Positions 40,860 through 64,000 of a stretch of DNA of 64,000 bases are shown one piece after another (within the stretch, counting starts at the first letter, position 1; each line of letters starts with the position of its first letter). The stretch spans positions 72,387-136,386 of the forward strand of contig JAZQAZ010000023.1 of NCBI GenBank assembly GCA_045545475.1, read 5' to 3'. The notes under the pieces are model-generated. The model worked only from the letters and a program-made list of their open reading frames with translations. It searched no databases and was not told the DNA's origin. The translations under genes were made by a program, and so were the position numbers. Source of the DNA: Clostridia bacterium (GTDB lineage: Bacteria; Bacillota; Clostridia; CAKSNL01; HGM11501).

Positions 40860-40888
40860 TCATATCTTTTCCCGTTTTCGCATAAAAT
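40860..40888 (+). promoter_or_regulatory. Possible SigE/SigK-type promoter of tspO
   Basis: TCATATC-14 bp-CATAAAAT. Confidence 0.4.
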
Positions 40889-40920
40889 AACCTCAGAAAC
40901 TGTGTAAAAGGAGTCTTTTT

Positions 40921-47677: not shown

Positions 47678-47792
47678 CCTTTCAATAAAGATAGTATATC
47701 TATTATTCCCAATCTGAATACAAAAAAGTAAATTTATTTTTTAAATGTGTTTTTATTTGCTAATATCGACATTTTTGACGTTCCGTAAAAAA

Positions 47793-47821
47793 ACCCAAGG
47801 ACGCATTTCGCGTCCTTGGGT
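47793..47821 (-). terminator. Terminator (identical copy at 50557..50585)
   Basis: ACCCAAGGACGC-atttc-GCGTCCTTGGGT with an adjacent A-tract. Confidence 0.85.
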
Positions 47822-47826
47822 GCTAA

Positions 47827-50535: not shown

Positions 50536-50556
50536 TCAGGCGAACCGCAAAAAAAC

Positions 50557-50585
50557 ACCCAAGGACGCATTTCGCGTCCTTGGGT
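50557..50585 (-). terminator. Terminator (copy of 47793..47821)
   Basis: ACCCAAGGACGCATTTCGCGTCCTTGGGT. Confidence 0.8.
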
Positions 50586-50630
50586 ACTTATAAGAAGAAC
50601 TAAATTGTTACGATGTTGTCTATACTATGA

Positions 50631-50659
50631 TACCAAAAAATGTACGTCCCCAAGTGGTA
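50631..50659. repeat. REP-like element variant
   Basis: TACCAAAAAATGTACGTCCCCAAGTGGTA, 6 bp past the stop of the small immunity gene. Confidence 0.75.
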
Positions 50660-50665
50660 TTTCAA

Positions 50666-50845
50666 TTATTCGTCAATATCGTTGTGGTATTTACAGCTTT
50701 TACACCTTTGGCGTTGTTCTTCATTCCATTTGATACCTTCTGGTAAAAGTGTGGATTTCACATAACCATCTGCTACATCACATACAATGTAGCAATCGGC
50801 ACCATTGATGTTGCCACCCTTTACCGGACAATATACTGTTTTCAT
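50666..50845 (-). CDS. Small Cys-rich putative immunity protein (59 aa, not in the ORF track)
   Basis: MKTVYCPVKGGNINGADCYIVCDVADGYVKSTLLPEGIKWNEEQRQRCKSCKYHNDIDE; ATG overlaps the toxin-CT TGA. Confidence 0.75.
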   Translation of the reverse strand: MKTVYCPVKGGNINGADCYIVCDVADGYVKSTLLPEGIKWNEEQRQRCKSCKYHNDIDE

Positions 50846-51423
50846 CTAAATACCCCCACTATTTTATCAGTTTTTGCATCAAAATCTTCTTTGGAGAAGA
50901 TAGTATTAACTTTGCCATCTTCATTCAAATATGCTGCACCATCCAAAGAATAATAATTGATGTGTTTTCCATCCCATTTGTTTCTCGTAATGCTGCATTT
51001 TGCCGATGCAATATATTTCTTCGCATCATCAATTGTGCATCCATGATTAAATGCATGGTCATTTAAAGCTTCAAGACCACTAATATCAATCTGCAATGGC
51101 GGAACTCTAATAATTCCAAATTCGCCTATATTTTTTATTTTGATATAAAGTTTATAATCCGTTTCAGTTGCATCAGGAACTCTCTGTTTATAATCCTTAT
51201 AAGTTTCTGCATTTAACTTTTCATATATATGATTTTTTTCTTCTTCCATTATACCACTTTCCCCGATGCTGTCAAGATAGTCGGTGGCTTCGATTAAGAG
51301 TTCTAAGTCCTGTCTGTTGCCGTTCTTCCGCTGCTCAAGACCATATTCGTATGCTTCTACTTCCTTTTCTCCGTCATACTGCAATCCCGTTGTACGGCTC
51401 ACCGCAACTGATATATCCTCCGC
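50842..51423 (-). pseudogene. Orphan toxin C-terminal cassette
   Basis: First ~59 codons near-identical to the junction of the 1015-aa toxin, then a different CT (NDHAFNH..INYYSLDGAAY..TIF); no convincing RBS/start. Confidence 0.8.
51248..51275 (-). promoter_or_regulatory. Intragenic sigma-A promoter at the toxin junction (copy 1)
   Basis: Minus strand TTGACA-16 bp-TATAAT with TG extended -10. Confidence 0.75.
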
Positions 51424-51429
51424 ATTTTG

Positions 51430-51522
51430 AGATTCTTCGGTTTTTGGCGTTTTGCCAAAACGCCTGTACCTCAGAATGACATACGGAAGAACAGCGTCCT
51501 ATTAGTCACGAGGAAGAATCTC
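51430..51522. repeat. GTCATTCTGAG...GAAGAATCTC-type palindromic element
   Basis: Outer inverted repeat GAGATTCTTC/GAAGAATCTC, inner GGCGTTTTG/CAAAACGCC; abuts the orphan cassette. Confidence 0.7.
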
Positions 51523-51556
51523 TATAGGGTTCGACATCTATGGCGAACCGCAAAAC

Positions 51557-51582
51557 AAAAAGGACGCAGGATGCGTCCTTTT
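51557..51582 (-). terminator. Terminator after the toxin-immunity pair
   Basis: AAAAAGGACGCA-gga-TGCGTCCTTTT. Confidence 0.8.
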
Positions 51583-51613
51583 TTGCCATTAAAATCAATT
51601 ATATCTTATTCAA

Positions 51614-51994
51614 CTAATTAATTTTTACTGCAATTGATTTGCACCCCCTCTGTATAGCCTCTTCAAACCAAGAACAGAGCAAATCATATACTGCATATGT
51701 TTCTTTGAAGTCAAATTCTTTAACTTTATAGCTAATTAAATCCTTAGCATATTCATACAGATTTGTAACAAAACCTTCTCCCTCTGTATCGAATGCCCCT
51801 TCACACTGGTTGTAATCTCTTGTAAACCCAATCCAGCCTCTGCCATCATCTGGAGGATTCCCAAATATATCGTCCCAAAACCCGTCCCAAATATGTAAAA
51901 TTTCCATATTAATATCTTTTGCGCATAATATAATTTCGGGTTCACCCTCGTAACCATCATAATACTTATAATTATTCATCTTTCCTGTGTCCAT
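51614..51994 (-). CDS. Cognate immunity protein (putative)
   Basis: Acidic 126 aa; overlaps the toxin 3' end; YYDGYEGEPEI..HIWDG motif. Confidence 0.7.
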   Translation of the reverse strand: MDTGKMNNYKYYDGYEGEPEIILCAKDINMEILHIWDGFWDDIFGNPPDDGRGWIGFTRDYNQCEGAFDTEGEGFVTNLYEYAKDLISYKVKEFDFKETYAVYDLLCSWFEEAIQRGCKSIAVKIN

Positions 51995-54900
51995 TATCTA
52001 ACCACTCCTTTTGCTGTTTTGTCGCTGTTCCGTTATGACGTGCATTTATAGCTTTTCTCCACTCGCTCTTAGCAATCCATAAGTTTTTGCCTACTAATAC
52101 CTCTTTTACTGCACCGCGATGATTTTCACCGTAGCCAATTCCGGGAATCCTTCTTTCCACAACCCAGGAAATGCCTTGTTCCTTCGGTGCTCCCGGAGTT
52201 CTGGTATGCCATCTGCTCGTATATTTATAGCCATCTCTTTCCCATGTGTACTTTATTTGGTTATATCCGTTTTTCTCTTGTATATCATATGTTGCATTTT
52301 CCGGAATTTCAACAGGTGAGCGCTTTGCTATTTCTCTCGCATTTTTCTCCAGATATTCAATACTCGGAATTTCTTTTGACGATTGTCTTTCTTCACCTTT
52401 CATTATACCACTTTCCCCAATGCTGTCAAGATAGTCGGTGGCTTCGATTAAGAGTTCTAAGTCCTGTCCGTTGCCGTTCTTCCGCTGCTCTAAGCCATAT
52501 TCGTATGCCTCTACTTCCTTTTCTCCGTCATACTGCATCCCTTTCGCTTGGCTTGCCGCAACTGATATATCTTCTGCTTTTGCTCCCGCTTTGGCAAATA
52601 TCCTCTCCGTTGCTGACATATTCCTTACCCTTGATGAGGCTTTTGCACTATACGGCTTTCTTACCACATTGGAATAATAATCGCCAAAGGTCATTTTCCC
52701 TGTCATTTCCACTTGCTCTTGCACTTCTGACTTGCCGTTAGTGTTATCGGAATATGTAGTTTTCGCTCCTTCCGGGCTTGTCTGCTGTACGGTTTCCGTT
52801 TCACTTATTCCCAAAAGCCAGTTATATGACTCTGCATCTATGGTGCCTTCCTCAAACATAGTTACCGCAAGCTCTCCGACATCGGCATTTGTGACCTTTT
52901 GCCCGGATTCTGCCTTTTCCACAAGCTTATTCACCTTTTGCCTTGTCTCGGTTTCCTTTGGCATTGACTTTGCGTACTCTATCAATTCATTCGCTTTTCC
53001 GCCTTCGGTTATTGCTTTTCCCACACTTGTGTTGCTGTTGTACTGTATACTTGCATCTGCTCCCCCGAAGAACAAACCTGATACAAAGCCGGATAAAGTT
53101 TCCATTCCTACTTCTCCTGCCATATCAACATATGCCATTCCGCTTGCTTCTTCATAGCTGAATCCTTCGCTCATATAACCTCTGACAAGCTTGTTAAACT
53201 GACTTTCTCCACCCATCGTTACATTGTCTGTAACGATATTGGCAAGACTTGTACAAAATTCTTCCGACGCTTCAATTCCTCCCTGCTTAAGTATGGTCAT
53301 AAATACATCGGTAAGGCTTTCTACAACTTTTGACTTAAAGAGGTTATCTATGCCTATTTTTTCAAATGCCGCTTCAAAAATACCTGCAGATATTCCTTTA
53401 ATCAATATCTGACTGTTGCTTCCTCCATCTATAGCTGTCTTTCGCCCTTCAGAAACCGCCGCATTCATTCCTAGAAATGCAACTCCGGCACCGCCCATCG
53501 GCATAACTGCTGCAGAATCCGCAATACTCATTCCCGTGTTGTACACAAAATTCCAAAAGGGATTTTCTATGTTTTCGCTTGTTGTTCCTCTGACAGCCTC
53601 GGAAGTGTACTGTGATTTAAAGCCAAGAGCGTAAGGATCAAAACGCTCTTCGCCCACCGATTCGGTTAAAAATGTGCCAAATGCTTTAGGTGCATTTACC
53701 AGATTAGAAACAACTGTTTCGGCGTTGGCCCCAAAAGGATTCTTTATAGCTTTTTCACGTGCTTTTTCGGTTTCTTTTTCGTATATCCGCTTGTTTAGTT
53801 CAGGTTCTAATGCCCTTAAATATAACGTACATTTCGAATATCCTCCGGTATTTTCTTTTGGACTTAGCAAAGCATAATAACGGAATATATTTTTCTCCTC
53901 TTCTGTCATTTCTGCTATTCTTTCAGCCCATTCTTCATAATAGGACGTATCAGTAGAATAAGATGCTAACGATACATCAGCAATTACATTGTTTATGTCT
54001 GCATGTCCGTTAATTATATCAAGAACCCATACATCATCAGGTGTGCCGAAATAACTACCGCTGTCCATAAGTCTTTTACGCTTATCTGCTATTATCCTTA
54101 GGTAAGCGGGGTCTTCTTTTGCCGGAGTTTCAAACTCTGCAATAAATTCCCTCTGCTTTGCTTCGTCTGCCAAGCCCTTCCAATAGTTCTGCTCTTCCGA
54201 AAAGCTTCTTGCTGCATTGAGCCTGGCCTGAACTGTCCCTGCACTGACACCCAATTTCACAGAATTAGGTGTAGCAATTCCATTCCCGGAATAATGCCGT
54301 ACATATCTCCACGCCTCATCCGCCTTCTCTCCGGCATTATCTGCTTTCCACCTAAGCACTTTTTCGTTTGATGTTTCATATCCTTTACCTTTGAGATATT
54401 CATACTCCTCCAGAAGGTCTGTATTGCCCGTAACGGCATATTCCTCCCACAGTTTGCTTGATGCGTTTCTGTAGCCCTCATGGTTCAAACCCGCATACTT
54501 TTCCTCAAATCCCTTTTCCGATGGGATGTATGTAATATCCTGTTCTTTTTTTGTTTCTTTCTGCGTTTTTTCTTTGTCTTCCGCTTTCTTTTTCTCCACA
54601 AAATACCCCATAGATTTATTAGCTGAAAGCGGCTCATTAAAATTCACCGGAGAATGACTTGTTGTTTTGTTATCAAACTTTGTTACCGTCCCGGAAGCCT
54701 TAGTTTTTATGACCTTTTCATCTGCATTTTTTTCCTTAGTAACAGGAACATTAAATACATCGGAGTATGACCTTTTCCACGGAGATTTTTCTTCTGCAGT
54801 TTCCTTTTCCTCCGTATTTACAGAAGTGGCATTTGTCTTTCTTCTTTTAGCACCTTCCTCATACCATAAAGCGTTGTTTTTTCCCGAGGAAAAGGAAGAC

Positions 54901-54995
54901 TCCTTATTCTCCGACGCCTCCTTTTCATACGAAGAATTGCTTTTTCGTCTTTTGTACCCTTCCGTATAATCCTCTGTTCTGACTTTTATACCCAT
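51972..54995 (-). CDS. Large polymorphic toxin (ejection/internal-virion-like body + Ntox30-like RNase CT)
   Basis: Ala/Gly-rich hydrophobic middle (EASEEF..), junction shared with the orphan cassette, CT with RWHTRTPGAP and a terminal His; start 54995 by GGAGGGG RBS (ORF track 55019). Confidence 0.75.
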   Translation of the reverse strand: MGIKVRTEDYTEGYKRRKSNSSYEKEASENKESSFSSGKNNALWYEEGAKRRKTNATSVNTEEKETAEEKSPWKRSYSDVFNVPVTKEKNADEKVIKTKASGTVTKFDNKTTSHSPVNFNEPLSANKSMGYFVEKKKAEDKEKTQKETKKEQDITYIPSEKGFEEKYAGLNHEGYRNASSKLWEEYAVTGNTDLLEEYEYLKGKGYETSNEKVLRWKADNAGEKADEAWRYVRHYSGNGIATPNSVKLGVSAGTVQARLNAARSFSEEQNYWKGLADEAKQREFIAEFETPAKEDPAYLRIIADKRKRLMDSGSYFGTPDDVWVLDIINGHADINNVIADVSLASYSTDTSYYEEWAERIAEMTEEEKNIFRYYALLSPKENTGGYSKCTLYLRALEPELNKRIYEKETEKAREKAIKNPFGANAETVVSNLVNAPKAFGTFLTESVGEERFDPYALGFKSQYTSEAVRGTTSENIENPFWNFVYNTGMSIADSAAVMPMGGAGVAFLGMNAAVSEGRKTAIDGGSNSQILIKGISAGIFEAAFEKIGIDNLFKSKVVESLTDVFMTILKQGGIEASEEFCTSLANIVTDNVTMGGESQFNKLVRGYMSEGFSYEEASGMAYVDMAGEVGMETLSGFVSGLFFGGADASIQYNSNTSVGKAITEGGKANELIEYAKSMPKETETRQKVNKLVEKAESGQKVTNADVGELAVTMFEEGTIDAESYNWLLGISETETVQQTSPEGAKTTYSDNTNGKSEVQEQVEMTGKMTFGDYYSNVVRKPYSAKASSRVRNMSATERIFAKAGAKAEDISVAASQAKGMQYDGEKEVEAYEYGLEQRKNGNGQDLELLIEATDYLDSIGESGIMKGEERQSSKEIPSIEYLEKNAREIAKRSPVEIPENATYDIQEKNGYNQIKYTWERDGYKYTSRWHTRTPGAPKEQGISWVVERRIPGIGYGENHRGAVKEVLVGKNLWIAKSEWRKAINARHNGTATKQQKEWLDNGHRKDE
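52402..52429 (-). promoter_or_regulatory. Intragenic sigma-A promoter at the toxin junction (copy 2)
   Basis: Minus strand TTGACA-16 bp-TATAAT with TG extended -10. Confidence 0.75.
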
Positions 54996-55035
54996 ATTAA
55001 GAAATTCCCCTCCTTGCATAGCTTAAGCTTTATTC

Positions 55036-56565
55036 TTAATAGTCAAACAGAGAAACTCCGGTATCCTTTTGTATCCATTCGTTTTTACTGTCGTTATATT
55101 GAAATCCGTAATCCGCAAGAATATCTATGTATTTATTGGAAAGTGCCCTGCCACTCTGATTGGATATGATAACGGCACTCATTGCCGCACTCAAGTCACC
55201 GGTTTCCTCTCCGCTGTAAGTTTTTGTTATAGCTGTACCGTCATAATAAAGTGTGCCGTTTTCATAGTCATAGCCATTATTTATAAGAAGCAGTATATCA
55301 TCCTCCTCAAGTTCGTTTCCTGCAAGATAATTTGTCATCGCTCTGTCATAAGGAGTACTTCCGCCCCAGCGATAATAGCCTTTTTCATCAAATATCATGC
55401 CCGATAGATCGTCATAATCATATCCGTATTCCTGAAGCACAAGCTGATTTTCCGGTTCCATCTCGTCCCATCCGTTGCTCTCATAGTCATTATACGCAAG
55501 CTGTAATTCATCATACTGCATATATGACTTTTCCACTATTTTGCCATCCTTGTAAAGGAGCCCGTTTTTAAATACATATTCTCCGCTATCTTCAATACGC
55601 ATCTTTTCCGAAGCGGTCAATTCTTCTCCCGCCTTATATCTGGCGACAAGCTCGTCTGTTGACTCTTCTCCTCTCCATGGATACTCTGCACCACCCTTTT
55701 CCAGTCTGCCTGTTTCTGCATTGTATCTGAACCCATTGGCATTAAGAATATCCTTGTCTTCTTCGCTTATATTCTCCCAGCCATATGCATCATAATTGTC
55801 ATATGCAGAAGTAAATCCCCTGTTTTCGCTGGCCAGTTCTCCTTCCGGTCCATACACACTTCCGTCTGCAATCCAGTATTCTCCGCTTGAATAAAGTGTC
55901 TCTCTTTCATCGGATGTAAGAGAATCCGCCCCGTAATCCTGTGCTTTTTGCAAAATGGAATTAAGTTCCCCTTCTTCCCATTTATCCTCTTCATCCATTT
56001 CCGCAATTTGAAAATTCCTTTCAAGCTCGTCCTGGTATTTATCATACGCAAGCTGTTCAAGTTCCGGAATGACGTCATTAAGTTCCTCCATATAGTCGTT
56101 ATAGCTTTCGGCTCCTGCGGCCACAGCGTAGCTTCCGGCAATGCCGCCTGTTTGTGCGGCAGTTTTGGCAATAGTATCTGTCATTGCCGACTTTCCGTTT
56201 CTCTTGGCTGATTCGAGATATTGCTGATATAAGGGATCTTCGTTTAAGTCATATTCAAATTCCATCGTTCTGTAGTTTTCTTCGCCCTTGGTGGTATTGC
56301 TCTTGTCACGATTCCCTGCATGGGCGTACGCTGCACTGTCCTCTCCCTCACCGGAAACTCTCATCTTTCCGTCGGTGTCATAATACACTTCGCCATTAGC
56401 TTTCTCTTTATTATTATTTTCGGTATCGCCTGCTGCTTTTTTCACAGTAGAGCTGGCCTTATTAAAAATATCATTTATATTTTTGTCTTTGAAAAGCTTT
56501 TCTTCTTCATCCTTTTCCTTATTTTTTACGTTTTCATAAACAGTCTTAATATTTCCGTATGCCAT
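55036..56565 (-). CDS. Putative phage internal virion protein with acidic C-terminal repeats
   Basis: FEYD...DPLYQQY...AMTDT...TGG..SYA..A motif; lies between portal and toxin. Confidence 0.55.
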   Translation of the reverse strand: MAYGNIKTVYENVKNKEKDEEEKLFKDKNINDIFNKASSTVKKAAGDTENNNKEKANGEVYYDTDGKMRVSGEGEDSAAYAHAGNRDKSNTTKGEENYRTMEFEYDLNEDPLYQQYLESAKRNGKSAMTDTIAKTAAQTGGIAGSYAVAAGAESYNDYMEELNDVIPELEQLAYDKYQDELERNFQIAEMDEEDKWEEGELNSILQKAQDYGADSLTSDERETLYSSGEYWIADGSVYGPEGELASENRGFTSAYDNYDAYGWENISEEDKDILNANGFRYNAETGRLEKGGAEYPWRGEESTDELVARYKAGEELTASEKMRIEDSGEYVFKNGLLYKDGKIVEKSYMQYDELQLAYNDYESNGWDEMEPENQLVLQEYGYDYDDLSGMIFDEKGYYRWGGSTPYDRAMTNYLAGNELEEDDILLLINNGYDYENGTLYYDGTAITKTYSGEETGDLSAAMSAVIISNQSGRALSNKYIDILADYGFQYNDSKNEWIQKDTGVSLFDY

Positions 56566-56568
56566 ACT

Positions 56569-58446
56569 TTAATCCCCCTTTATATTATTGGCTCTTTCCA
56601 CCAAAGCTTTACCGTAATCATTAAGTGCAGCTTTTTCAGCACCTTCTGAAGCAACTTTGACAGGATTTCCATTATTTGCGCTTCCACCCTTAAAAGAAAC
56701 GGGCGTTTGAGAAAACGCTTGAGTTTTCGCCGTGTTATCCGCCACCTTTACCGTTCCTGCTTTACCTGTACGAAGCTGAGCAATAAATCCTGTAAGCTGT
56801 TTTATTTCTGTCTCAAGCTTTTTTATTTTTTCGTTAAACGTCTGGCCTTCGGATATTTTTGCCATAATTTCATTCTTTCCCTCGAAATCCATCATAGAAA
56901 GCATTATTGTTGCCTGCTGGGCATTGTTTGGATTAAAAATTCCCATTTTATATAAGTTTCCTGCAGTTTCATTCTGGCTGAGCTTTGAATAGGGATTTGT
57001 TTTTTGTGCCTTTACACTTATGTCAAAAACAGGCTGTCTTTTAAGTACAGTGCCATCTGCATCTGTCATTACATTCCCTTCGCCGTCCCTTATCTCCTGA
57101 AGAGCAATTCCCTTATTGGAATAGGACACGAACTTTTCTCCTTCATTTGGTTTCACAATTCGGAATGTTCGCTCAGTGGTGTAGAACTGCCTTATAAGCT
57201 CAATTACCATTCTCACAACCTTAACATAAGCACGATAACTGGTTTTAATTGCGTCACGGCTGGTTTTGTTTCCGGCCTCTTGTAGTGTTGCGATGGCCGC
57301 ACCGCTTGTTACGCCGGAAAGCATTCCACCCGAATTAACATCTCTGTTTCCAATGGTTTCCTTAAGCTCGCCGATCTTTCTTTCCAGAAGCTTATTATAA
57401 ATTCCGTTTACGGGATTTAAGTTTATCTGCTGAAATCTTTCTTCTGTTATATCCCCTGCAACCGATACAAAAGGCTTCGACCAGTCAGCAAACTCAGATT
57501 CATTTATTCCCACATCTTTTTTCTTGAACCATCTGGGGTTAGTTGCTTTTTTTGTGTAATTCATCAAAAGAGCATCCAGACAGTCGATATAGCTCTGCGT
57601 ATCCTTTGTCACGCTTATAACGCCATAGCCTGTTGCCTGATCCTCTTCAGGATAAAGAGTGTCAAATACGACCGGATACATGCCGTGATCGTAATATCCA
57701 CGCTCCTTATATGACGAATCTTCCTCCGACGAATAAAGAAGAGTTTCCCCGGTAAACTTGCAGTAATGCAAAACTTTCTTTCCGTTTATGTTCTTCTTAT
57801 AGTACCAGTCCACAACCAGGCTTTGATTGCTTCTGTCCACATTATCGTCCTTTTCATACTCGGTAAGGTTAACCCTTTCTCCTGTTATCTCAGCATCAGG
57901 ATATTCTTCCTTAAGCGTTTCCGTGTCTACTGCCGCACATATAAATAAATTAGAACTGCTTTGTATATCCGCCGCAGTAGGATCCCAGAAAACACGGAGC
58001 AAATCAATGTTCTTTACAGATATATCTCCAATCCCTCCATCTGCCATTGGATCCCAGAATACTCCGTAACAGCTGGTGCCGTGTTTGAGCTTATACCAGA
58101 GTGCGGATGAATATGTATCCTCAAAATCCGAACGCTCCAGTATGGCAGGGACAATATCACTAAGCAGCAATGCTTCTTCCTTGTCCGACTGCTCTCTGGG
58201 TAAAAATGCAGGAATAGGATAGTTATCCATCATATCCGCATGCTTATTTACTACGGCGTTCCACATATAGGCAGAGCTTGAAGGCATAATCCCTGTTTCT
58301 TCATCCTTTTCTCGCCACATCTGCAGACGCCAGGCTTTTTCTTCTTCAACTATTCTTGCTTCAAGATTAGCCTTTCCTTGTTTATATCGTTCCAAAATAC
58401 CCTTTGCCACAGATATTTTTTCATTCATTTTCGTTTTTTTCTGCAT
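56569..58446 (-). CDS. Phage portal protein (podovirus-like)
   Basis: 625 aa directly after TerL; GVFWDP, HGMYPVVFD, SGAAIATLQEAG. Confidence 0.8.
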   Translation of the reverse strand: MQKKTKMNEKISVAKGILERYKQGKANLEARIVEEEKAWRLQMWREKDEETGIMPSSSAYMWNAVVNKHADMMDNYPIPAFLPREQSDKEEALLLSDIVPAILERSDFEDTYSSALWYKLKHGTSCYGVFWDPMADGGIGDISVKNIDLLRVFWDPTAADIQSSSNLFICAAVDTETLKEEYPDAEITGERVNLTEYEKDDNVDRSNQSLVVDWYYKKNINGKKVLHYCKFTGETLLYSSEEDSSYKERGYYDHGMYPVVFDTLYPEEDQATGYGVISVTKDTQSYIDCLDALLMNYTKKATNPRWFKKKDVGINESEFADWSKPFVSVAGDITEERFQQINLNPVNGIYNKLLERKIGELKETIGNRDVNSGGMLSGVTSGAAIATLQEAGNKTSRDAIKTSYRAYVKVVRMVIELIRQFYTTERTFRIVKPNEGEKFVSYSNKGIALQEIRDGEGNVMTDADGTVLKRQPVFDISVKAQKTNPYSKLSQNETAGNLYKMGIFNPNNAQQATIMLSMMDFEGKNEIMAKISEGQTFNEKIKKLETEIKQLTGFIAQLRTGKAGTVKVADNTAKTQAFSQTPVSFKGGSANNGNPVKVASEGAEKAALNDYGKALVERANNIKGD

Positions 58447-58469
58447 AAAGCTCCTTTCTGCAATTATGC

Positions 58470-59885
58470 TTAATTATATTTTTTCATAAAAAAATTATAC
58501 TGACCTATTTTGCGGTTATCGGAAAGCGGATCAAACATTTTCACCTCCGCACAGGTCCCCGAAACGGGAGCGATGGGGTGTGCCATGCACATATAGCGCA
58601 CCTCATCGGCTATGTGATCTTCGCCTTCCGTATCCAGATCTTCCGGATTGTTTTTAGAAAATACCAATGACGGCATCGTTCTTATAAATCCTTCGCAGTT
58701 TGAAAACACATACATCATCGGAATATTGTTTTCGTCAAACTGCATTCTGTAATGCACCTGCATCCATCCGGGAAGACGGTTGTTGTCTCCCTTATCAAAA
58801 TAAACTCCAAAGCTTTCTGCCACATCGGCAACGCTTGTTCCTCTCGATTTATCCCAAATGGATGGATCTGCAACTCCGAAGATATCCTTCCCTTTTAGCC
58901 AGGGGTGGCTTTTTTCCGTTTCAGAAACTCTTGCGAATATCTTTTCCGGAGTCCACTTAACACCGGTATTGGCCATAACTGCTCCGCTGCTGTCCTTTGC
59001 ACAACCATAAAGTTCCATTATGCGATATAATCTGCCGTCATAGTCAATCGCCCACCATCCCACAGAAAACGGACGGGCATATCCAAAGTCAAAACTTCTG
59101 TATATCGTCCATTCCAGAGGAGGTGTAAACGGTGTAATAATGTGCGTTCCTTTCCTGTCATCGTAATGCATCGGAACATTTTTGAATTCGGAGAAAAACT
59201 GACCGTCAAAAATATCCCATTCTCCGTATAAGAGGGCCTTTTTTTCATGCAGCGGCAAGCTCTCAAGTCTTTTTATGTAGCCTGGATCATTTTCCATAAG
59301 AAATTTGTTTTCCGTAACCGTTGCCGGAATAAAAAGAAAACTTGTCCCATCACGCTCAAATCTTTCTCCCGGGTTTTCCGGAGTTATAAACATTTCTTTT
59401 ACCCACCCATGCCCTCTTCCTCCCGGGTTGGTAGATGATTTAATCTGCTTAGGAAACTTATTTGCTCCTCTTAGTCTGCTTCGCATATATTTATATTGAT
59501 ATTCTGTAAAATGCGTAAGCTCGTCAAAACGTATAATGTCATACTCCGCCGACTGATAGCCTGAAACATCCGAGTCGGAAGCGAGGAATCCAAACTCTAT
59601 AAGAGAGCCATTTACAAAGTTCATTTTATGGCCCACCGAAGAATAGGAATAAAGTTCTTTCGGAAGTATAGCCTGGGCAGTAAGTATAATAGAACGGTTA
59701 AGTTCTGGGTAAGAATTACGGAAAATTATCTGCTTTATGCCGGGATACTTAAGTGCCTTAAGAAAAGCATCAATAATCTGCCCGTAACTCTTTCCTCCAC
59801 CTGCGGCTCCGCCATACAAAACTTCGTCCTCCTCAGCATTAATAAACGCCTGCTGTTTTCGGGTTATTCTGTATTCTATTTTCAT
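58470..59885 (-). CDS. Phage terminase large subunit
   Basis: Walker A LYGGAAGGGKS, Walker B FDELTHF, STNPGG.GHGWVK, nuclease DFGY..EDHIADEVRY. Confidence 0.93.
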   Translation of the reverse strand: MKIEYRITRKQQAFINAEEDEVLYGGAAGGGKSYGQIIDAFLKALKYPGIKQIIFRNSYPELNRSIILTAQAILPKELYSYSSVGHKMNFVNGSLIEFGFLASDSDVSGYQSAEYDIIRFDELTHFTEYQYKYMRSRLRGANKFPKQIKSSTNPGGRGHGWVKEMFITPENPGERFERDGTSFLFIPATVTENKFLMENDPGYIKRLESLPLHEKKALLYGEWDIFDGQFFSEFKNVPMHYDDRKGTHIITPFTPPLEWTIYRSFDFGYARPFSVGWWAIDYDGRLYRIMELYGCAKDSSGAVMANTGVKWTPEKIFARVSETEKSHPWLKGKDIFGVADPSIWDKSRGTSVADVAESFGVYFDKGDNNRLPGWMQVHYRMQFDENNIPMMYVFSNCEGFIRTMPSLVFSKNNPEDLDTEGEDHIADEVRYMCMAHPIAPVSGTCAEVKMFDPLSDNRKIGQYNFFMKKYN

Positions 59886-60045
59886 CTTGGCTCCGCTCCC
59901 CGCTGTTCTCGTCGCTTTCCTTCGGTCGCTCCTCCCTCGCTCAAGGCTCCGCCATACAAAACTTCGTCCTCCTCGGCATTAATAAACGCCTGCTGTTTTC
60001 GGGTTATTCTGTATTCTATTTTCATCTTGGCTCCGCTCCCCGCTG
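59805..60045. repeat. 140-bp-period duplication of the terL 5' end around a GC-rich mini-element
   Basis: 59805..59905 is nearly identical to 59945..60045; spacer TTCTCGTCGCTTTCCTTCGGTCGCTCCTCCCTCGCTCAA. Confidence 0.9.
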
Positions 60046-60057
60046 CTATCACATGTT

Positions 60058-60336
60058 TTATTCTTCCTTGCCCGATAGACTGTTTATCTTTGCCGCTACA
60101 AGAGCTTTCTGTCCAAGGGACTGTTCAATTATCTTTGCATATTTTCTCTTTATTTTAACCTGCTTACCTCTGGGAACAACCATTGCTGTACCATTTAAAA
60201 TAACTACAATATCATCCTTATATCTGCCGTCGTCCTTATGAAGTGTAATTTCAACTTCTTCATTAAGGTAATCGTTTTCTTTTGTTTCTAAAATTTCTTC
60301 TGTTGCCTTTGTTGTTTCTTTTTTATTTGTTGCCAT
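60058..60336 (-). CDS. Small phage protein downstream of the major capsid gene
   Basis: L.KD..RYKDD.VV.LNG....V.RG..V motif; AAGGAG RBS. Confidence 0.7.
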   Translation of the reverse strand: MATNKKETTKATEEILETKENDYLNEEVEITLHKDDGRYKDDIVVILNGTAMVVPRGKQVKIKRKYAKIIEQSLGQKALVAAKINSLSGKEE

Positions 60337-60355
60337 AATAAAACGCTCCTTTTCT

Positions 60356-60378
60356 GCGTGCAGGCAAAGCCTGCACGC
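60356..60378 (-). terminator. Hairpin after the capsid gene
   Basis: GCGTGCAGGC-aaa-GCCTGCACGC, no U-tract on the minus strand. Confidence 0.5.
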
Positions 60379-60397
60379 CTTTAATTTTTTAATTTAA

Positions 60398-61366
60398 TCA
60401 GTTTTCTTCATCATTAAAGCTTGATGCAGTTTCAACTCTTACCATATAGGGTTCAACAAGAATTTCCGCAGTATGATATGCCTTCCAACCAACAGTTGAA
60501 CGCTGATTCAAGGGGTCTCCGGTACCTGCAGAGCCCAATGCTTTAACTATAGTTGTAAGACCTCCGCCTTCAATATTGGTAATACCGTAGGCATCCTTTC
60601 CGAAAATGAGAGTAGCATACACACTTAACTCCCCTTCCTTCCAGATTTTTGCCTCCGTGGACTCAATCACCTTTACTCCTGCAATCTCGCCGATTTCGCC
60701 AAAATAAATTTTATTTACATTGGCACTCGTATACTTCTGTGCATCAATCCAATCTGGATCTGCCATAAGATCATATGCAACAGAAGGATGCATAATCGCA
60801 ATATAATACCCGTTGATTTTAGGCGTATTATTCATTTTGAGTGTACGAACCGCTCTTTTTAATACGTCTACAGTCATCTTATGTTCCTGAGTAATGCTTT
60901 CTCTTGCTTCAATGCTTCCGTCTGCATACTGAACGTTGGTTCCTGAAACCAATATATCTCTTTCCACAGTATCTATTGTCTGTGCAGCCTGATCGGAAAT
61001 AAGTCCGAGAGTTTCCGTAATTACAGGGTCAACTCCCGTAACATCAAGATTATCAGAAATTGTAACATAGCCTCCGTACTGGTGAATTGTCGCCGTAATT
61101 GTTGATACATCAAGATTCTGACCGTCGGGAGTTACGCCCTCTGTAAGGGGTGTTGTTGCCTTTCCGAGAGGAGTGAACTTACGGAACTCAATCTGATTAC
61201 CGCCATTTTTAGGAATATCTCTTTTCTGGCCGAACTGACCGTGTATAAGATTGGGTGTTGCCATATGTATAAGTGTTCTGTCGTAAAAAGTTTTGTCCTC
61301 AGACTTTAAATTGCCTGACATTGTATTGGTGTTAAGATTAAATGCTTTTAATGTTTCTGTACTCAT
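60398..61366 (-). CDS. Major capsid protein, N4-gp56 family
   Basis: FGQKRDIPKN.G..IEFRK, PLTEGVTP.G, GEIG...GV, DPLNQRSTVGWK. Confidence 0.9.
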   Translation of the reverse strand: MSTETLKAFNLNTNTMSGNLKSEDKTFYDRTLIHMATPNLIHGQFGQKRDIPKNGGNQIEFRKFTPLGKATTPLTEGVTPDGQNLDVSTITATIHQYGGYVTISDNLDVTGVDPVITETLGLISDQAAQTIDTVERDILVSGTNVQYADGSIEARESITQEHKMTVDVLKRAVRTLKMNNTPKINGYYIAIMHPSVAYDLMADPDWIDAQKYTSANVNKIYFGEIGEIAGVKVIESTEAKIWKEGELSVYATLIFGKDAYGITNIEGGGLTTIVKALGSAGTGDPLNQRSTVGWKAYHTAEILVEPYMVRVETASSFNDEEN

Positions 61367-61412
61367 AAAATACCTCCGTTAATTAATTTTTTCTGTTCAT
61401 TAAAATCTGTTT

Positions 61413-62099
61413 TTATGCCCCGAAAGTAATTTTTTCGCCTCTGCGAACTCTTTCGAGAATTTCTTCTATCTCGTCTCCGGTCAATGACTCCACGCTTTTT
61501 TTAGTCTTGACAGAAGCCGACCTTTCATTTCCTGCTTCTTTTATTCTTCCGTTTCCGGACCTGATGTTTTCCAGCGTTGCTTTTGATGCCTTATCGGAAA
61601 TCGACTTCGAAAGCTCATCAAAATGCATAGCTCTGTATAAAGAAGTCATAGGAATTCCGGATTTCAATCCTGCACGGAACTCAGAATTATTAAATTCCTT
61701 CTTAAAATCAAATGAAGGATATTTTTTCTTTGTTTCCTTTGCTTCTGAAAGCCATTTATCATATTGTTTTTTTATCAAAGCAGCATCGCCCTTGCTACTT
61801 TTCTCCTTCTTTTTCAACTCATCAAGAATACGCTTAACCAAAGAAACCGTATCCTTTTCGTTATAATGCTCCATCAATGGTCTAAGTGCTTCTTTAAGTG
61901 CTATAAGCTCTTCTTCGGTTTCCTTCATTCCCTTGTACCTTCTTCCGAACTCTCTGTTAAACCTGTCCTGAAACTGTTCTTTATAATCATTCTTTATAAG
62001 CTTGGAAAAGGCATCGTCTCTCTCTTCCTTACTCATATTACCGGCAAGTGCCTTATTTCTTTCCGGGGTTAACTTTTCTGCCCCTTTATAATTTTTCAT
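61413..62099 (-). CDS. Putative capsid scaffolding protein
   Basis: Charged helical protein directly upstream of MCP, ending RRGEKITF. Confidence 0.65.
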   Translation of the reverse strand: MKNYKGAEKLTPERNKALAGNMSKEERDDAFSKLIKNDYKEQFQDRFNREFGRRYKGMKETEEELIALKEALRPLMEHYNEKDTVSLVKRILDELKKKEKSSKGDAALIKKQYDKWLSEAKETKKKYPSFDFKKEFNNSEFRAGLKSGIPMTSLYRAMHFDELSKSISDKASKATLENIRSGNGRIKEAGNERSASVKTKKSVESLTGDEIEEILERVRRGEKITFGA

Positions 62100-62233
62100 G
62101 AAAAATCCTCCTTATCCGTAAAAATATACTTAAAAATCCTGCATTTCATTATTCTGTAATCGCATAAAACAGACCGGATGATTATTCATCCTTTGAAACC
62201 TCTATCAAATCAAACGCATCACCCCTTTCAAAT

Positions 62234-62827
62234 TCATACAATTTTAGACTGATATCTTTTTATAACAGTCTTTATATACTCAGCTTTCGGCCGTGCCTTC
62301 CCCGATAAAAACAATTCCCAGTTATTTATGTTGGAAAGGGTTATAACCCCATCGTCAAACATTTTAGTAACTACATTGTCACAGGAAACCTTCTTAATTT
62401 CATTAAAAGGAAAGTTTTTTCCCGGACAAAGGGTGGTGCCGTAATCCGAGTGCTTGGCTATTTCCAGCTTTCTTCCGTAACATTCCTGAATGTGACCGAT
62501 AAGAAGCTTTCCGGATTCTATCTGTGCTTTTTCCATAACATCTTTTTCGAAATTACCTTCGAAACACACCCCTACACTGTCTATATTATTTCCTTCAGCG
62601 TGAGCTCCCATTTTTTCTATGGGACGCCCTCTGTAAATACTTCCGTCTTTCCTTATATAAAAGTGATAGCCTATTCCGCTCCATCCGTTTTTCAGATGAG
62701 TATTATGTAAGCTTAAAACATCTCCGGCTCCTGCTCTGTGATGTATTATAATTTTCCGTGTCAGGGGTCTTGTCAAAAGATTTCCGGACCAGTTGAAATC
62801 CGTATCATAAATCTTCATATCCTTCAC
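62234..62827 (-). CDS. N-acetylmuramoyl-L-alanine amidase (Amidase_2) endolysin
   Basis: IIIHH, GWSGIGYHFYIRKDG, GAHA, GVCFEGNF, H.D...T.CPG. Confidence 0.92.
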   Translation of the reverse strand: MKDMKIYDTDFNWSGNLLTRPLTRKIIIHHRAGAGDVLSLHNTHLKNGWSGIGYHFYIRKDGSIYRGRPIEKMGAHAEGNNIDSVGVCFEGNFEKDVMEKAQIESGKLLIGHIQECYGRKLEIAKHSDYGTTLCPGKNFPFNEIKKVSCDNVVTKMFDDGVITLSNINNWELFLSGKARPKAEYIKTVIKRYQSKIV

Positions 62828-63263
62828 TCCTCTCTACTGACTTCAATTTTGCAACCTCTAGCCCCTTAATGAAAAATTCAGGAACCTCAACTTCCATCAA
62901 CACCAGGTTCTCGAGTATGCTCCTCACTTCATTTATAATAAATGTAGCCAGGGTAAACCACCCGAAAAGCTCAGTAAAGCCAAGATCTGCCCCAATCAGT
63001 ACACCTATTTTTGTGAAACACACCGCCACAAAAAACGCAAGCATAATGCACACCCAATATCCTAGTTTTTTTACGATTCCTTTTACTCCTTTGCAGGAAT
63101 TTTCAACGCCGAAAAACCTTGCCTTCAATATGCCTGTAACATAATCTGTCACATTAAGCACCAAAAAGGCACAGAATAAATACCAAAACTGCCCAAATAT
63201 TCCCGAAAGCAGTGCAACAATGGCTCCGCCTATCAGATTAACCTTATGTAATATTTTTTCCAT
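62805..63263 (-). CDS. Phage holin family protein (toxin secretion/phage lysis holin)
   Basis: DYVTG, KGIVKK, NEVRSILENL, VPEF; start 63263. Confidence 0.9.
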   Translation of the reverse strand: MEKILHKVNLIGGAIVALLSGIFGQFWYLFCAFLVLNVTDYVTGILKARFFGVENSCKGVKGIVKKLGYWVCIMLAFFVAVCFTKIGVLIGADLGFTELFGWFTLATFIINEVRSILENLVLMEVEVPEFFIKGLEVAKLKSVERSEGYEDL

Positions 63264-63403
63264 AACATCACCTCGCATCTTTATTCAAACACTTATACCA
63301 TCGCCCGGCTCCGCCCCCGCTGTTCTCGTTCGCCTTCTCAGGCTCTCTCCCTCGCTCAAGGCTCCGCCTATCAGATTAACCTTATGTAATATTTTTTCCA
63401 TAA
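63222..63403. repeat. 138-bp-period duplication of the holin 5' end around the same mini-element
   Basis: 63222..63265 = 63360..63403; spacer contains GGCTCCGCCCCCGCTGTTCTCGT..CTCCCTCGCTCAA. Confidence 0.9.
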
Positions 63404-63430
63404 AAAATTCTCCTTCAAATAAATGTGAAA

Positions 63431-64000
63431 TTAATTACTCATTTCCAATTTCTTAAGCTTCTCGTCAATATCCCGAAGCACCTCGTCAATCACCTTAGCC
63501 AGTTCCGCCCTTGTTATCGGGCTATCTGGCTTAAACGTCCCGTCGGGATAGCCTTCCATCAATCCTGCGAAGTATACGTTCCTTATGCATTTCTCCGCCC
63601 AATGTCCATCCGTATCAGAAAAGGGCAACTTCACTTTGTCCGCAAGTACAAGATACGTATCATCCAGACTCTTTGTAGTAATGGGAATCCTGTGATAGCC
63701 TCCGTCGCAGTATTCCTTTCCGTATGAATTTTGCAATATAAAGTTTTCTTCATCCCATCCCACAATTAATTCACAATGCCGTGTGGAAGTATTTCTCACC
63801 GTCACAAGAGGAAGGTTAAACTGATATAACGCCTTCTTAACATCCGATACGAAATTGGAATTCTGCCTCATCTTGTAAAAGCTTCCCACCTTAAAAGCCA
63901 TAGCATGGGGAAACCTTTGGGCGTAGTCCTTCGCCTTCTCTATTGCTTCGGGCACTTCTAAATTTTCGGGAGCAATCGTGCGAAAGCTTGTCCCAATCTC
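63431..64000 (-). CDS. Papain-like (C1) peptidase + SLH domain protein, 5'-partial
   Basis: HCELIVGW..QNSYG (catalytic His/Asn), FSDTDGHWA..GYPDGTFKPDSPITRAE; frame open to the window end. Confidence 0.75.
   Translation of the reverse strand, partial: EIGTSFRTIAPENLEVPEAIEKAKDYAQRFPHAMAFKVGSFYKMRQNSNFVSDVKKALYQFNLPLVTVRNTSTRHCELIVGWDEENFILQNSYGKEYCDGGYHRIPITTKSLDDTYLVLADKVKLPFSDTDGHWAEKCIRNVYFAGLMEGYPDGTFKPDSPITRAELAKVIDEVLRDIDEKLKKLEMSN

Follow-up and report, generated by a model that had tools for sequence, protein, structure and literature searches.

The window, the whole 64,000-nt stretch of DNA analysed here, ends in a continuous run of phage-type genes followed by toxin and immunity genes (positions 50631-64000). 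Every gene listed in the initial annotation was recovered there at the same coordinates, and all features of this run lie on the minus strand. The run begins with the C-terminal 189 aa of an SLH-domain protein (63431..64000; PF00395, 4.9e-14), whose 5' end is cut by the contig end. Full-length homologues of 293-331 aa additionally show a weak papain-like Peptidase_C1 match (SLH plus Peptidase_C1 in L019:6317-7198 and L143:3693-4688, E 0.0086 and 5.9e-5), and a second copy of the gene, 96% identical, is located at the right end of contig C25. This gene is the first of a lysis block that continues with a holin (62805..63278; PF05105, 2.1e-28; phrog_199) and an N-acetylmuramoyl-L-alanine amidase (endolysin; 62234..62827; PF01510, 4e-17; phrog_35436, 3.6e-34). 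The next gene (61413..62099; phrog_13908, 7.2e-36, a family without known function) is a scaffold candidate because of its place before the major capsid protein (MCP), a position it keeps syntenically in the related loci examined. The MCP itself is of the N4-gp56 / Phage_capsid_4 type (60398..61366; PF25209, 4.5e-12; phrog_1357, 1.8e-80), and its homologues are labelled 'N4-gp56 family major capsid protein' by their sources. A conserved 92-aa protein (60058..60336; phrog_15239, 9.4e-15, no known function) comes next after the MCP in most related loci; calling it a connector or decoration protein is only a guess. It is followed by a large terminase (TerL; 58470..59885; PF04466 and PF03237; phrog_979, 1e-48) and a P22-type portal (56569..58446; PF16510, 2.6e-36; phrog_156, 2.3e-79). 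The ribosome-binding site and first 27 codons of TerL are tandemly duplicated (59805..60045; two 101-bp copies, 140 bp apart). The holin start (63222-63403) shows a comparable duplication, and the junction motif common to both occurs at only those two sites in the genome.

Downstream of the portal lies p509 (55036..56565), a 509-aa aromatic-repeat protein and candidate internal or ejection protein. Pfam and PHROGs searches returned nothing significant for it beyond one sub-cut-off DUF6576 match (E 0.0043); the Atlas clusters closest to it are viral for the most part (score 0.93; low recognition), and in related prophage loci it is placed after a nozzle homologue. The 1015-aa carrier-toxin p1015 (51972..55019) ends in a 136-aa toxin domain (51975..52382), and the gene end is overlapped by a 126-aa immunity candidate (51614..51994). 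Then follows an orphan cassette without carrier body, consisting of a pre-toxin remnant and a second toxin end (50842..51427; ORF 50842-51402), whose stop is overlapped by the start of a cysteine-rich 59-aa ORF, the orphan's immunity candidate (50666..50845). As read from the sequence, a terminator-like hairpin followed by GCGGTTCGCC closes this second cassette (50540..50600), and its twin at ~51555-51600 closes the first; the pattern was found only twice genome-wide. An Imm33 gene is located 2.5 kb further left (47827-48180).

The N-terminus of p1015 is K/E-rich with a repeated EG-x-KRRK-S/T-N motif; it is followed by a conserved core (residues ~370-720), a pre-toxin stretch (~770-880) and the toxin domain (880-1015). 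A Pfam scan of p1015 assigned no family and no MuF domain (PF04233), and an HMM search for LPD22, which the Atlas results had hinted at, was negative. The last 136 residues match 309 representative proteins, and among the best 150 of these hits the match sits at the C-terminal end in nearly all, on carriers ranging from 101 to 2478 aa. When we scanned the 67 carriers of at least 300 aa among the 150 listed, we found 7 with LXG, 4 with WXG100, 3 with RHS repeats, 3 with PT-HINT, 3 with PT-TG and 1 with PT-VENN domains. Residues R936, W937 and H938 are conserved, and the AF2 model of the domain reaches a pLDDT of 95.9. Judged by these homologies, p1015 does end in a polymorphic-toxin domain, for which an immunity partner is predicted and which is common mainly to LXG, Rhs and HINT toxins and not to phage proteins. 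This bears out the initial annotation, which had described a ~1000-aa protein with a toxin-like C-terminus and no MuF domain. The 126-aa immunity candidate has 47 homologues and no Pfam family. Its modelled complex with the toxin domain scored 0.88, compared with 0.00 for the best of three controls. Of 80 solved complexes, 58 reach the mark attained by this pair, as do 2 of 110 mismatched pairs. Three runs agreed in at least 96% of contacts with a partner pLDDT of at least 90, and the modelled interface covers the conserved R57 and H59. The model thus predicts that the 126-aa protein binds the p1015 toxin domain.

The two cassettes share a 194-nt stretch, 89% identical, just upstream of their variable ends (52388-52581 and 51234-51427). 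The orphan toxin end, also of polymorphic-toxin type, shares 80% identity with the C-terminal end of a full-length, LysM-containing carrier of 985 aa in a related genome (G010), and 73% with that of a PF04233 MuF protein (residues 402-517 of 517). Six of its nine longer homologues carry PF04233 (Phage_Mu_F), with C-terminal identities to PF04233 proteins of 46-73%, so the second toxin and immunity cassette noticed at the outset has an end that also occurs on classic MuF toxins. The 59-aa ORF matched no family; a 60-aa ORF after a related orphan in another genome (G009) is 33% identical to it.

Contig C23 terminates at the last base of the window (64000), and in this draft genome (G000; 50 contigs) the element, interrupted at a repeat, appears to go on to contig C25. 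The earlier statement that tail adaptor and nozzle genes are absent is therefore true of the window and not of the element. Just upstream, on C25, we found a 651-aa protein whose model (pLDDT 85.9) gave Foldseek matches to podovirus nozzles and hubs (Pa223, E 1.2e-14; T7 gp12, 6e-14 to 1e-12; P22 gp10, 8e-12; the T7 gp12 and P22 gp10 matches span 1e-14 to 1e-10 overall), and which by its predicted fold is a T7/P22-type tail nozzle. Next to it are encoded a 460-aa collagen-like fibre matching tail-fibre PHROGs and a divergently transcribed CI-like repressor (HTH_3 plus S24); the host's own LexA is encoded elsewhere. The join of the C25 left end to the C23 right end, with ~0.3-0.5 kb unassembled, is suggested by the gene order in G002, where counterparts of the C25 repressor, nozzle and fibre are followed on a single contig by SLH, holin, amidase, scaffold, MCP, small protein, TerL, portal and p509. 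The G000 element would accordingly run from the divergent repressor through nozzle, collagen-like fibre and a 249-aa protein to the contig break, and from there through SLH-peptidase, holin, amidase, scaffold, MCP, 92-aa protein, TerL, portal and p509 to the p1015-toxin and immunity gene, ending in the orphan toxin end with its own immunity gene. On this reading, positions 50631-64000 are the downstream two-thirds of a ~19-20 kb podovirus-derived element; we hold it, jointly with the rest of the explanation given below, to be somewhat more probable than its negation.

In line with the initial annotation, no integrase was found, either in the window part (Pfam and PHROGs, which also revealed no MuF domain) or, along with any replication gene, in the reconstructed element; likewise, no TerS was found in the window part or in this gene order. 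A 50-contig assembly in which the element breaks at a repeat might simply have left such modules of a complete, active temperate podovirus unassembled. This is hard to reconcile with two related genomes (G007 and G009), whose elements are wholly contained in contigs of 78.5 and 41.8 kb and are bounded by host genes after ~10 kb, and with the finding that, in five genomes, the element and its surroundings out to ~20 kb are free of tyrosine integrases. We consider an active podovirus highly improbable; the podovirus-derived element appears to have shed its genes for integration and replication as well as, in this gene order, TerS.

We analysed 14 genomes of the family of uncultured gut Clostridia to which G000 belongs, G000 included. 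TerL was found in 14 of 14. The portal was matched in all 13 others, with some of the matches partial or lying on contig fragments; outside the family, 6 of 47 genomes gave a portal match. Some genomes carry extra or decaying copies; that at G011:C2 is a TerL fragment only. In G007 and G009, an 11-gene block of ~10 kb plus the divergent repressor gene sits directly between host TspO/FBA and Mrp, and TspO and FBA flank the element in G000 too (39756-41391). The repressor side adjoins one and the same host block (a 907-aa marker and others) in G002, G005, G008 and G011, as well as in G000 if the contigs are joined as inferred. Across 13 genomes, TerL and the 907-aa host marker rise and fall together in their identity to G000 (Spearman 0.90), with identities taken to this single reference among mutually related genomes. 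Compared with G002, ten element genes show dN/dS values of 0.026-0.23 (0.026 for the 92-aa protein, 0.033 for the MCP) at dS of 0.8-3.1, which is strong purifying selection at saturated dS. The spread of TerL and portal, the common flanks, the co-divergence, the purifying selection and the finding of no integrase in or beside the element together support a domesticated, GTA-like element, as originally proposed with synteny and dN/dS across relatives as the check. By these comparisons, it appears to be host-owned and vertically inherited within this family and not a sporadic prophage.

Beyond ~5 kb of further genes, G000 also harbours a complete prophage, on C40/C25, with integrase, TerS, ParB and its own head genes. 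The initial annotation had named an ordinary integrase-bearing prophage upstream as evidence against domestication; the one found is a separate though related phage, and G002 lacks it at this place yet keeps the element. Its lysis block is 59-96% identical to that of the element. A 640-bp stretch shows 96% identity between element and prophage, and some family genomes hold extra or decaying element copies, so exchange of DNA between the element and true phages is ongoing. Such a neighbour, only a few kb away and so similar in its lysis genes, could also serve a satellite that depends on a helper, like the capsid-forming PICIs, and would build its own heads while borrowing functions such as TerS, integrase or replication from the prophage. 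However, the element has its own nozzle and fibre, lacks the integrase, primase and replication genes that define known satellites, persists in G002, and occupies common chromosomal sites while diverging in step with its host. We therefore regard a satellite as very unlikely and retain the domesticated element as the preferred reading.

The core of p1015 is 32% identical to residues 623-965 of a 3163-aa MuF_C-bearing protein of the co-resident prophage, on C25, and also matches ORFs of >2000 aa located after nozzle and p509 in related full prophages. By this homology, the core is related to the giant polyvalent proteins downstream of the nozzle in these prophages. Together with the orphan end found on Phage_Mu_F proteins, it provides a link to capsids; p1015 is probably an injected protein, encoded by the last structural gene of the cluster, and may travel inside the capsid. 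The p1015 family is present in only 7 of the 14 family genomes, all of one clade. In G007 and G009, the element lacks p1015, and genes with the same pre-toxin stretch sit elsewhere: in G009 a 794-aa protein and an orphan cassette are surrounded by host genes, away from any phage gene, and in G007 the gene is on a separate short contig. The carrier could thus be released without a capsid. Such placements would fit a grounded, defective prophage remnant beside an independent toxin island, with p1015 as an ordinary exotoxin that is absent from capsids, secreted or freed by lysis and, in homologues such as those in G010, held at the wall by LysM; the prevalence of its toxin domain on LXG, Rhs and HINT carriers and the Imm33 gene near the cassettes fit this as well. 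Against it, the core of p1015 has homologues inside the structural operons of related prophages, the orphan end is common to MuF head proteins, and a remnant would not keep ten genes intact across species, with dN/dS of 0.03-0.23 at saturated dS. We judge the remnant with an exotoxin to be unlikely, if worth keeping in mind. The locus instead appears to be a family-kept, phage-derived cluster whose last structural gene, probably coding for an injected protein, has a swappable toxin and an antidote gene; the domestication and toxin parts of the original interpretation stand, and its missing nozzle and tail do not.

In the scheme that we infer for induction, particle formation, packaged content and encapsidation of p1015, DNA damage would, in a few cells, cause the repressor to cleave itself. 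Heads would assemble around the portal, taking in p509 and p1015 as internal proteins, and TerL would package DNA into them, probably largely irrespective of sequence. A short tail would form once nozzle and fibres were added, and the particles would be released by holin, amidase and SLH-peptidase. On a related cell, a particle would eject its internal proteins along with the DNA, and the C-terminal toxin of p1015 would harm cells without the matching 126-aa immunity protein. Recombination at the common pre-toxin stretch could swap the toxin end for the stored orphan.

By MCP, the closest cultured phages are Bacillus megaterium podophage Page and its relatives (Pagevirus, ~40 kb; 41% identity over 92%). 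Page resembles the element in having a portal of podovirus type and a large protein (1679 aa), encoded ahead of the lysis genes, but in tblastn only the MCP and, weakly, the holin match, and Page, as a complete phage, possesses TerS and replication genes. Podoviruses eject internal core proteins (T7 gp14-gp16; P22 gp7, gp20 and gp16), which p509 and p1015 resemble by position: in related prophages, their genes directly follow the nozzle, the largest coming last with an enzymatic end. PBSX-type phage-like bacteriocins are chromosomally fixed, repressor-controlled, lysis-releasing defective Firmicute phages that cannot propagate themselves; their tail is contractile, and PBSX is not known to carry a polymorphic toxin. 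The element would likewise be a fixed, repressor-controlled, lysis-released and non-propagating defective phage of a Firmicute.

The PBSX of Bacillus subtilis is named as an earlier Gram-positive GTA-like system in the report of FpGTA from Faecalibacterium prausnitzii (Borodovich et al., Nat Commun 2026, PMC12946183), a podovirus-like phage-derived cluster that is near-ubiquitous in its genus and, by analogy, is the closest precedent. As far as the published descriptions can be compared, both occur in gut Clostridia and comprise TerL, portal, scaffold, MCP and conserved hypotheticals without integrase or replication genes. FpGTA has its fibre and lysis genes in a second operon, as may the type II clade here, where a fibre homologue lies on another contig. 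In G000, by contrast, the element is a single locus with a rearranged gene order in which TerS was not found, flanked by a CI-like S24 repressor and ending in a polymorphic toxin with immunity and orphan cassettes; the main text of the FpGTA report has no word beginning 'toxin', 'repressor' or 'nozzle'. The MuF polymorphic toxins of temperate Firmicutes phages, as outlined by Jamet et al. (BMC Biol 2017, PMC5576092), similarly place a variable C-terminal toxin on a head/packaging-module protein, with immunity genes, in gut Firmicutes. The carrier p1015 differs in lacking PF04233, in belonging to another family related to giant polyvalent proteins, and in not residing in a temperate phage. Polyvalent proteins are characterized by Iyer et al. 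(J Bacteriol 2017, PMC5512222) as large, multidomain, encoded beside portal and terminase, and predicted to be packaged and injected; the MuF_C domain of the 3163-aa C25 paralogue is the PBECR RNase domain of that account. Unlike these proteins, p1015 has no LPD22 detectable by HMM and is short, with one effector end, a cognate immunity gene and an orphan cassette. Its design follows interbacterial polymorphic-toxin logic rather than that of anti-host early proteins.

All thirteen reading frames that the initial annotation had assigned to the element (50631–64000) are present on the minus strand in the expected places, and profile searches backed their identities. From the right end, they comprise an SLH protein fragment (63431–64000), a holin (62805–63278), an amidase (62234–62827), a scaffold candidate (61413–62099), a capsid protein (60398–61366) whose homologues carry the source name 'N4-gp56 family', a conserved 92-aa protein (60058–60336), TerL (58470–59885) and a P22-type portal (56569–58446). 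These are followed by p509, a 509-aa candidate internal or ejection protein (55036–56565), p1015, a 1015-aa carrier-toxin (51972–55019), and two small ORFs 3' of p1015 with a second C-terminal cassette between them. Neither p509 nor p1015 had a significant family match in Pfam and PHROG scans. The RBS and first 27 codons of TerL (59805–60045) and the RBS and first 14 codons of the holin gene (63222–63403) are tandemly duplicated, with the copies joined by a common ~50-nt junction sequence that occurs at only these two sites in the genome. In each case the upstream copy forms a short ORF, the TerL one stopping in overlap with the true start (ATGA); the TerL duplication is absent from the related genome G002. 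A tandem duplication of the RBS and first codons is also seen in the fibre gene on contig C25 of the source genome (locus L118, 2170–2570). With 56 SLH-domain matches across its genome, the host is rich in S-layer-anchored wall proteins, which is relevant since the lysis block of the element uses an SLH domain.

The initial annotation had also taken tail genes to be absent, which proved wrong on looking beyond position 64,000. This base is the end of contig C23 in a draft assembly of 50 contigs, so the genes thought missing could lie outside the window. Its last 640 bp recur at the right end of C25 with 96% identity, a shared repeat that explains an assembly break at this point. In G002, a single contig carries an opposite-strand repressor gene, genes for a 716-aa and a 676-aa protein, and then SLH, holin, amidase, scaffold, capsid, small protein, TerL, portal and p509 homologue, in this order. 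The first three of these have counterparts at the left end of C25 (62–91% identity), where a 249-aa gene comes next. From the G002 gene order we infer that the left end of C25 is joined to the end of the window, with ~0.3–0.5 kb unassembled. The 651-aa product of C25:2814–4769 bears the PHROGs label 'internal virion protein', and its model (mean pLDDT 85.9) matched podovirus tail nozzles and hubs in more than 20 entries (Foldseek probability 1.00, E values of 1e-14 to 1e-10), among them Pa223 (1.2e-14), T7 gp12 (6e-14 to 1e-12), P22 gp10 (8e-12) and Sf6 gp8. Judging from this model, the element probably encodes a nozzle or tail-hub protein of the T7 gp12/P22 gp10 fold. A 460-aa C25 protein matches many tail-fibre PHROGs and has a paralogue with collagen repeats on contig C40. 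The repressor combines HTH_3 and Peptidase_S24 domains, and the host's own LexA is encoded on another contig. Nozzle, fibre and HTH_3/S24 repressor together point to a short tail and a switch of the DNA-damage-responsive kind, both hidden from the window.

The initial annotation had named a complete ordinary prophage with integrase in the flank as evidence against domestication, and a complete integrase-bearing prophage does lie close by. At its right end, C25 has another SLH–holin–amidase block, then a 627-aa nozzle paralogue, a 382-aa p509 relative and a 3163-aa MuF_C protein, and the left end of C40 carries integrase, ParB, TerS (GP3_package), TerL, portal, scaffold, capsid, fibre and a 234-aa protein. 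The two ends make up a full-size temperate phage, podovirus-like and of the same broad family as the element. This prophage spans C40:1–23100 and C25:10773–25102 (loci L116, L117 and L005) and also encodes a DUF3846/Myb protein; its 3163-aa polyvalent protein has a MuF_C (PBECR) domain and its fibre is collagen-like. Around 5 kb of other genes separate it from the element, and at that place G002 has kept the element and is missing the full prophage. The prophage is a separate neighbour, and the finding that the initial annotation had named as counting against domestication did not materialize. The near-identical SLH stretch suggests that prophage and element may have exchanged lysis-gene sequence.

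The element itself is spread throughout the host family. The portal had a match in each of the other 13 genomes of the family, 11 of 11 within the genus, and in 6 of 47 from other families of the class, and TerL was found in 14 of 14 family genomes. In G007 and G009, two of these relatives, the element is a compact block of 11 genes (~10 kb) with a divergent repressor gene alongside: nozzle, SLH-peptidase, holin, amidase, Prp-like peptidase, scaffold, capsid, small protein, TerL, portal and a 324-aa p509 relative. Host genes directly border this block, TspO/FBA at one end and Mrp at the opposite end; in the source genome, TspO and FBA lie at 39756–41391 of the window, ~9 kb to the left of the element. 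On the repressor side, the element borders one and the same host block, which includes a 907-aa marker, in G002, G005, G008 and G011, and likewise in the source genome provided that the inferred contig joins are correct. The Prp-like cysteine peptidase, encoded between amidase and scaffold in G007 (L019, 4973–5278) with a matching gene in G009, was recognized through PF04327 (1.4e-4, below the curated cut-off) and phrog_4478 'peptidase'; it is not at the corresponding place in the window and may process the scaffold or capsid protein.

No tyrosine integrase (PF00589) was detected on or within ~20 kb of the element in five genomes. Pfam and PHROG scans, run on the element as well as on its relatives and with an integrase search that covered the tyrosine type, detected genes for phage structure and lysis and none for integration or replication, as expected of a gene transfer agent (GTA). 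TerL identity to the source genome ranges from 90 to 48% and tracks that of the 907-aa host marker (94 to 60%), with a Spearman coefficient of 0.90 over 13 mutually related genomes and this single marker. Compared with G002, dS is saturated (0.8–3.1), and dN/dS amounts to 0.026–0.044 for small protein, capsid, repressor, TerL and portal and 0.056–0.23 for the other five genes. Taken together, presence, shared flanks, the lack of a tyrosine integrase, co-divergence and selection are better explained by an old element that belongs to the host and is passed on vertically than by repeated infection. The check by synteny and dN/dS that had been proposed for the domesticated-element idea came out in its favour (shared host flanks, dN/dS 0.03–0.23, TerL in 14/14), and vertical inheritance in the host lineage at conserved sites under purifying selection, another GTA trait, appears likely from these comparisons.

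Two gene orders exist, one per host clade. Genomes of the first clade have TerL directly 5' of portal, as in the window. In the second (type II) clade, TerL comes only after a short ORF resembling TerS (observed in G005 and G011), the portal, the nozzle and a p509 relative, and the fibre homologue is on another contig. The holin of the source-genome type had no match in 5 type II genomes, in a search run without a positive control. That TerS is missing in the gene order of the window may hint at packaging without preference for the element's own genes, a pointer that is only suggestive. Extra copies of the element also occur, some of them decaying, with only a TerL fragment left on one contig (G011:C2).

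Turning to the carrier, a Pfam scan of p1015 returned 0 families at E ≤ 0.01, the MuF/SPP1 gp7 domain (PF04233) being among those absent, in agreement with the initial annotation, which had recognized no MuF domain on this protein. The core of p1015 (approximately residues 370–720) has 32% identity to part of the 3163-aa MuF_C protein and also matches ORFs of >2000 aa located 3' of p509 in two other prophages. One effector end is recognizable on p1015; polyvalent proteins combine several unrelated effector domains in one virion-associated polypeptide. Language-model features (Atlas search) place the p1015 body beside viral clusters that bear LPD22, which serves as a lead only; searched against the genome with a cut-off as loose as E ≤ 1, the LPD22 HMM matched nothing, and we discarded this assignment. 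At its N-terminus, p1015 has two copies of the motif (Y/W)-x-EG-x-KRRK-(S/T)-N (residues 18–29 and 52–63; window ~54830–54970). The motif is found again in carriers of 730 and 794 aa from other strains, and could be a packaging or targeting signal common to the carrier family.

The last 136 residues of p1015 (880–1015) matched 309 representative proteins; among the 150 matches listed, nearly all lie at the C-terminal end of proteins ranging from 101 to 2478 aa. A scan of the 67 listed matches of at least 300 aa revealed LXG (7), WXG100 (4), RHS repeats (3), PT-HINT (3), PT-TG (3) and PT-VENN (1) domains, and the remainder showed no family at E ≤ 0.001. Ntox30 was weakly detected on 3 of the 67 (best E 2.6e-4). 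By sequence, the same C-terminal domain sits on carriers with unrelated N-terminal trafficking domains, as is characteristic of polymorphic toxins. The domain has conserved residues R936, W937 and H938, and its model (pLDDT 95.9) found no Foldseek match at E ≤ 0.001. Candidates from a wide VIA search, the toxin-immunity complex entry 8owu_C (Z 5.5, rmsd 3.0, 75 residues) and 7zhm_D (Z 4.0), were too weak to name a fold. Neither toxin end matched PDB sequences below E 0.1, and both toxin ends and both immunity ORFs were without a Pfam family at E ≤ 10.

A 126-aa ORF overlaps the stop of the p1015 toxin and encodes a protein with 47 homologues and no family. Modelled as a complex with the toxin domain, it scored 0.88, and the best of three controls scored 0.00. 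Of 80 solved complexes, 58 attain this mark of 0.88, as do 2 of 110 mismatched pairs. Contacts agreed to at least 96% across runs, the partner had a pLDDT of at least 90, and the interface covers the conserved arginine and histidine. The model supports a toxin-immunity pair, with a predicted cognate immunity protein encoded immediately 3' of the toxin, as is typical of polymorphic toxins. The second, orphan cassette consists of a toxin end and a 59-aa ORF. Just 5' of their variable ends, both cassettes have 194 nt in common (89% identity), so that the orphan appears to keep a recombination stretch in common with the main gene, again as polymorphic toxins do. Each cassette closes with a GC-rich hairpin and T-run followed by GCGGTTCGCC (window 50540–50600 and 51555–51600), a combination that occurs only twice in the 2.7-Mb genome and may be a cassette border mark or recombination site. 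Approximately 2.5 kb left of the last cassette, beside an AraC regulator, lies an Imm33 gene (PF09951, 3.3e-16; 47827–48180). The 41 nt beside it (47787–47827) have 93% identity to 50551–50591, the terminator region after the last cassette, and this gene may be another stranded immunity cassette.

In G010, a full-length carrier of 985 aa that bears LysM domains has a C-terminus 80% identical to the orphan toxin end. Six of the nine longer homologues of this toxin end carry PF04233 (Phage_Mu_F), and the last 116 residues of one such protein align to it with 73% identity, which indicates that the stored spare toxin end is also used by classic MuF head-protein toxins. This common end is the strongest, if indirect, argument that the carrier family may be a capsid-associated vehicle like MuF. 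The toxin end differs among species. G002 retains the toxin at 93% identity, together with an immunity gene that is identical; both lie where another contig begins, again next to these ABC-transporter genes. Where the carrier-toxin would be expected in G010:C8, there is an IS200-like transposase (PF01797, 3.2e-16; L032, 6282–7480), followed by a retained homologue of the 126-aa immunity gene (61% identity), so the immunity gene outlived the toxin here. The elements of G007 and G009 are without toxin, and genes with the same pre-toxin stretch are found elsewhere in these genomes. Overall, 7 of the 14 family genomes, each belonging to the first clade, were found to contain the carrier family or its pre-toxin stretch.

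Outside the family, the capsid family comprises 338 confirmed loci in the contigs searched and at least 7996 protein clusters. Other gut Clostridia usually have TerL and portal first, next scaffold, capsid and small protein, and lastly fibre N-terminal domain, nozzle, p509 and a giant protein. With 41% capsid identity, the Page group of 40-kb podophages from Bacillus megaterium is the closest among cultured phages. In searches for annotated phage relatives, the only nozzle matches were 10 faecal 'Bacteriophage sp.' scaffolds without annotation, and p1015 matched two Listeria phage records, solely via its toxin end. The 12-kb faecal scaffolds MT836150 and MT836159 were considered as small complete genomes; they have no terminal repeats and hold the module only in part, and are fragments. 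In public DNA data, the head module is covered by contigs of at least 90% likeness in three runs, each from a different study and one perhaps the source sample. The p1015 body (~53.0–54.5 kb) is hardly covered in these runs, which proves nothing since the data come from contigs. Contig joints at cassette borders (51549>50551 and, in one table only, 52892>50551 and 52681>51580), found in metagenomes at 90% likeness and located on repeats, are a weak hint of a different cassette order in other strains. One metatranscriptome run has contigs on portal, TerL and the holin start, where DNA carry-over is possible.

The interpretation best supported by these data, and one we consider somewhat favoured, is a domesticated particle with a swappable toxin borne on an internal protein of non-MuF type, the loading of the toxin being putative. 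This retains the core of the initial interpretation and gives up its premise of missing tail genes. A fuller version, which we put forward tentatively and with more doubt than confidence, is a host-owned, SOS-controlled, GTA-type podovirus-like particle with the swappable toxin on an ejected non-MuF protein; it would deliver toxin (and DNA) in a contact-independent, kin-discriminating manner, with toxin ends drawn from the pool of MuF phages, LXG and Rhs. That a conserved element ends in toxin, immunity gene and spare cassettes suggests a concrete benefit to the host, namely killing or excluding non-kin. If true, phage-borne polymorphic toxins would extend beyond the MuF carrier, three toxin pools would be linked by the same C-terminal ends on MuF, LXG/Rhs and this carrier, and a candidate contact-free route would exist for toxins into thick-walled, S-layer-bearing anaerobes.

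Among known systems, MuF toxins were defined, and their delivery by phages proposed, by Jamet et al. 2017 (PMC5576092), and polyvalent proteins have been predicted to be packaged and injected (Iyer et al. 2017, PMC5512222). Unlike MuF polymorphic toxins, p1015 is without an N-terminal PF04233 domain, and like them it combines a variable C-terminal toxin and an immunity gene within a phage head and packaging module. Podovirus-like GTA-type elements in gut Clostridia were first described in 2026 with FpGTA of Faecalibacterium, which has a 10.5-kb head operon and a second fibre-lysis operon and forms 40-nm particles containing 8.4–8.9 kb of host DNA; GTA-like packaging was reported there for Ruminococcaceae, Oscillospiraceae and Christensenellaceae as well (Borodovich et al. 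2026, PMC12946183). For FpGTA, that study refers to two stretches of CP030777 (2536737–2546346 and 2672270–2677176) and to the proteins RCH50849.1 and RCH50851.1. The main text of that paper contains no word beginning 'toxin', 'repressor' or 'nozzle', none of the 120 capsid protein matches listed, out of at least 7996, is named Faecalibacterium, and in a literature search for 'gene transfer agent' and 'polymorphic toxin' neither term stood in any matching title. In conclusion, the finding joins two known kinds, an FpGTA-type element, likened to FpGTA by description and here through genes alone, and a phage-borne polymorphic toxin.
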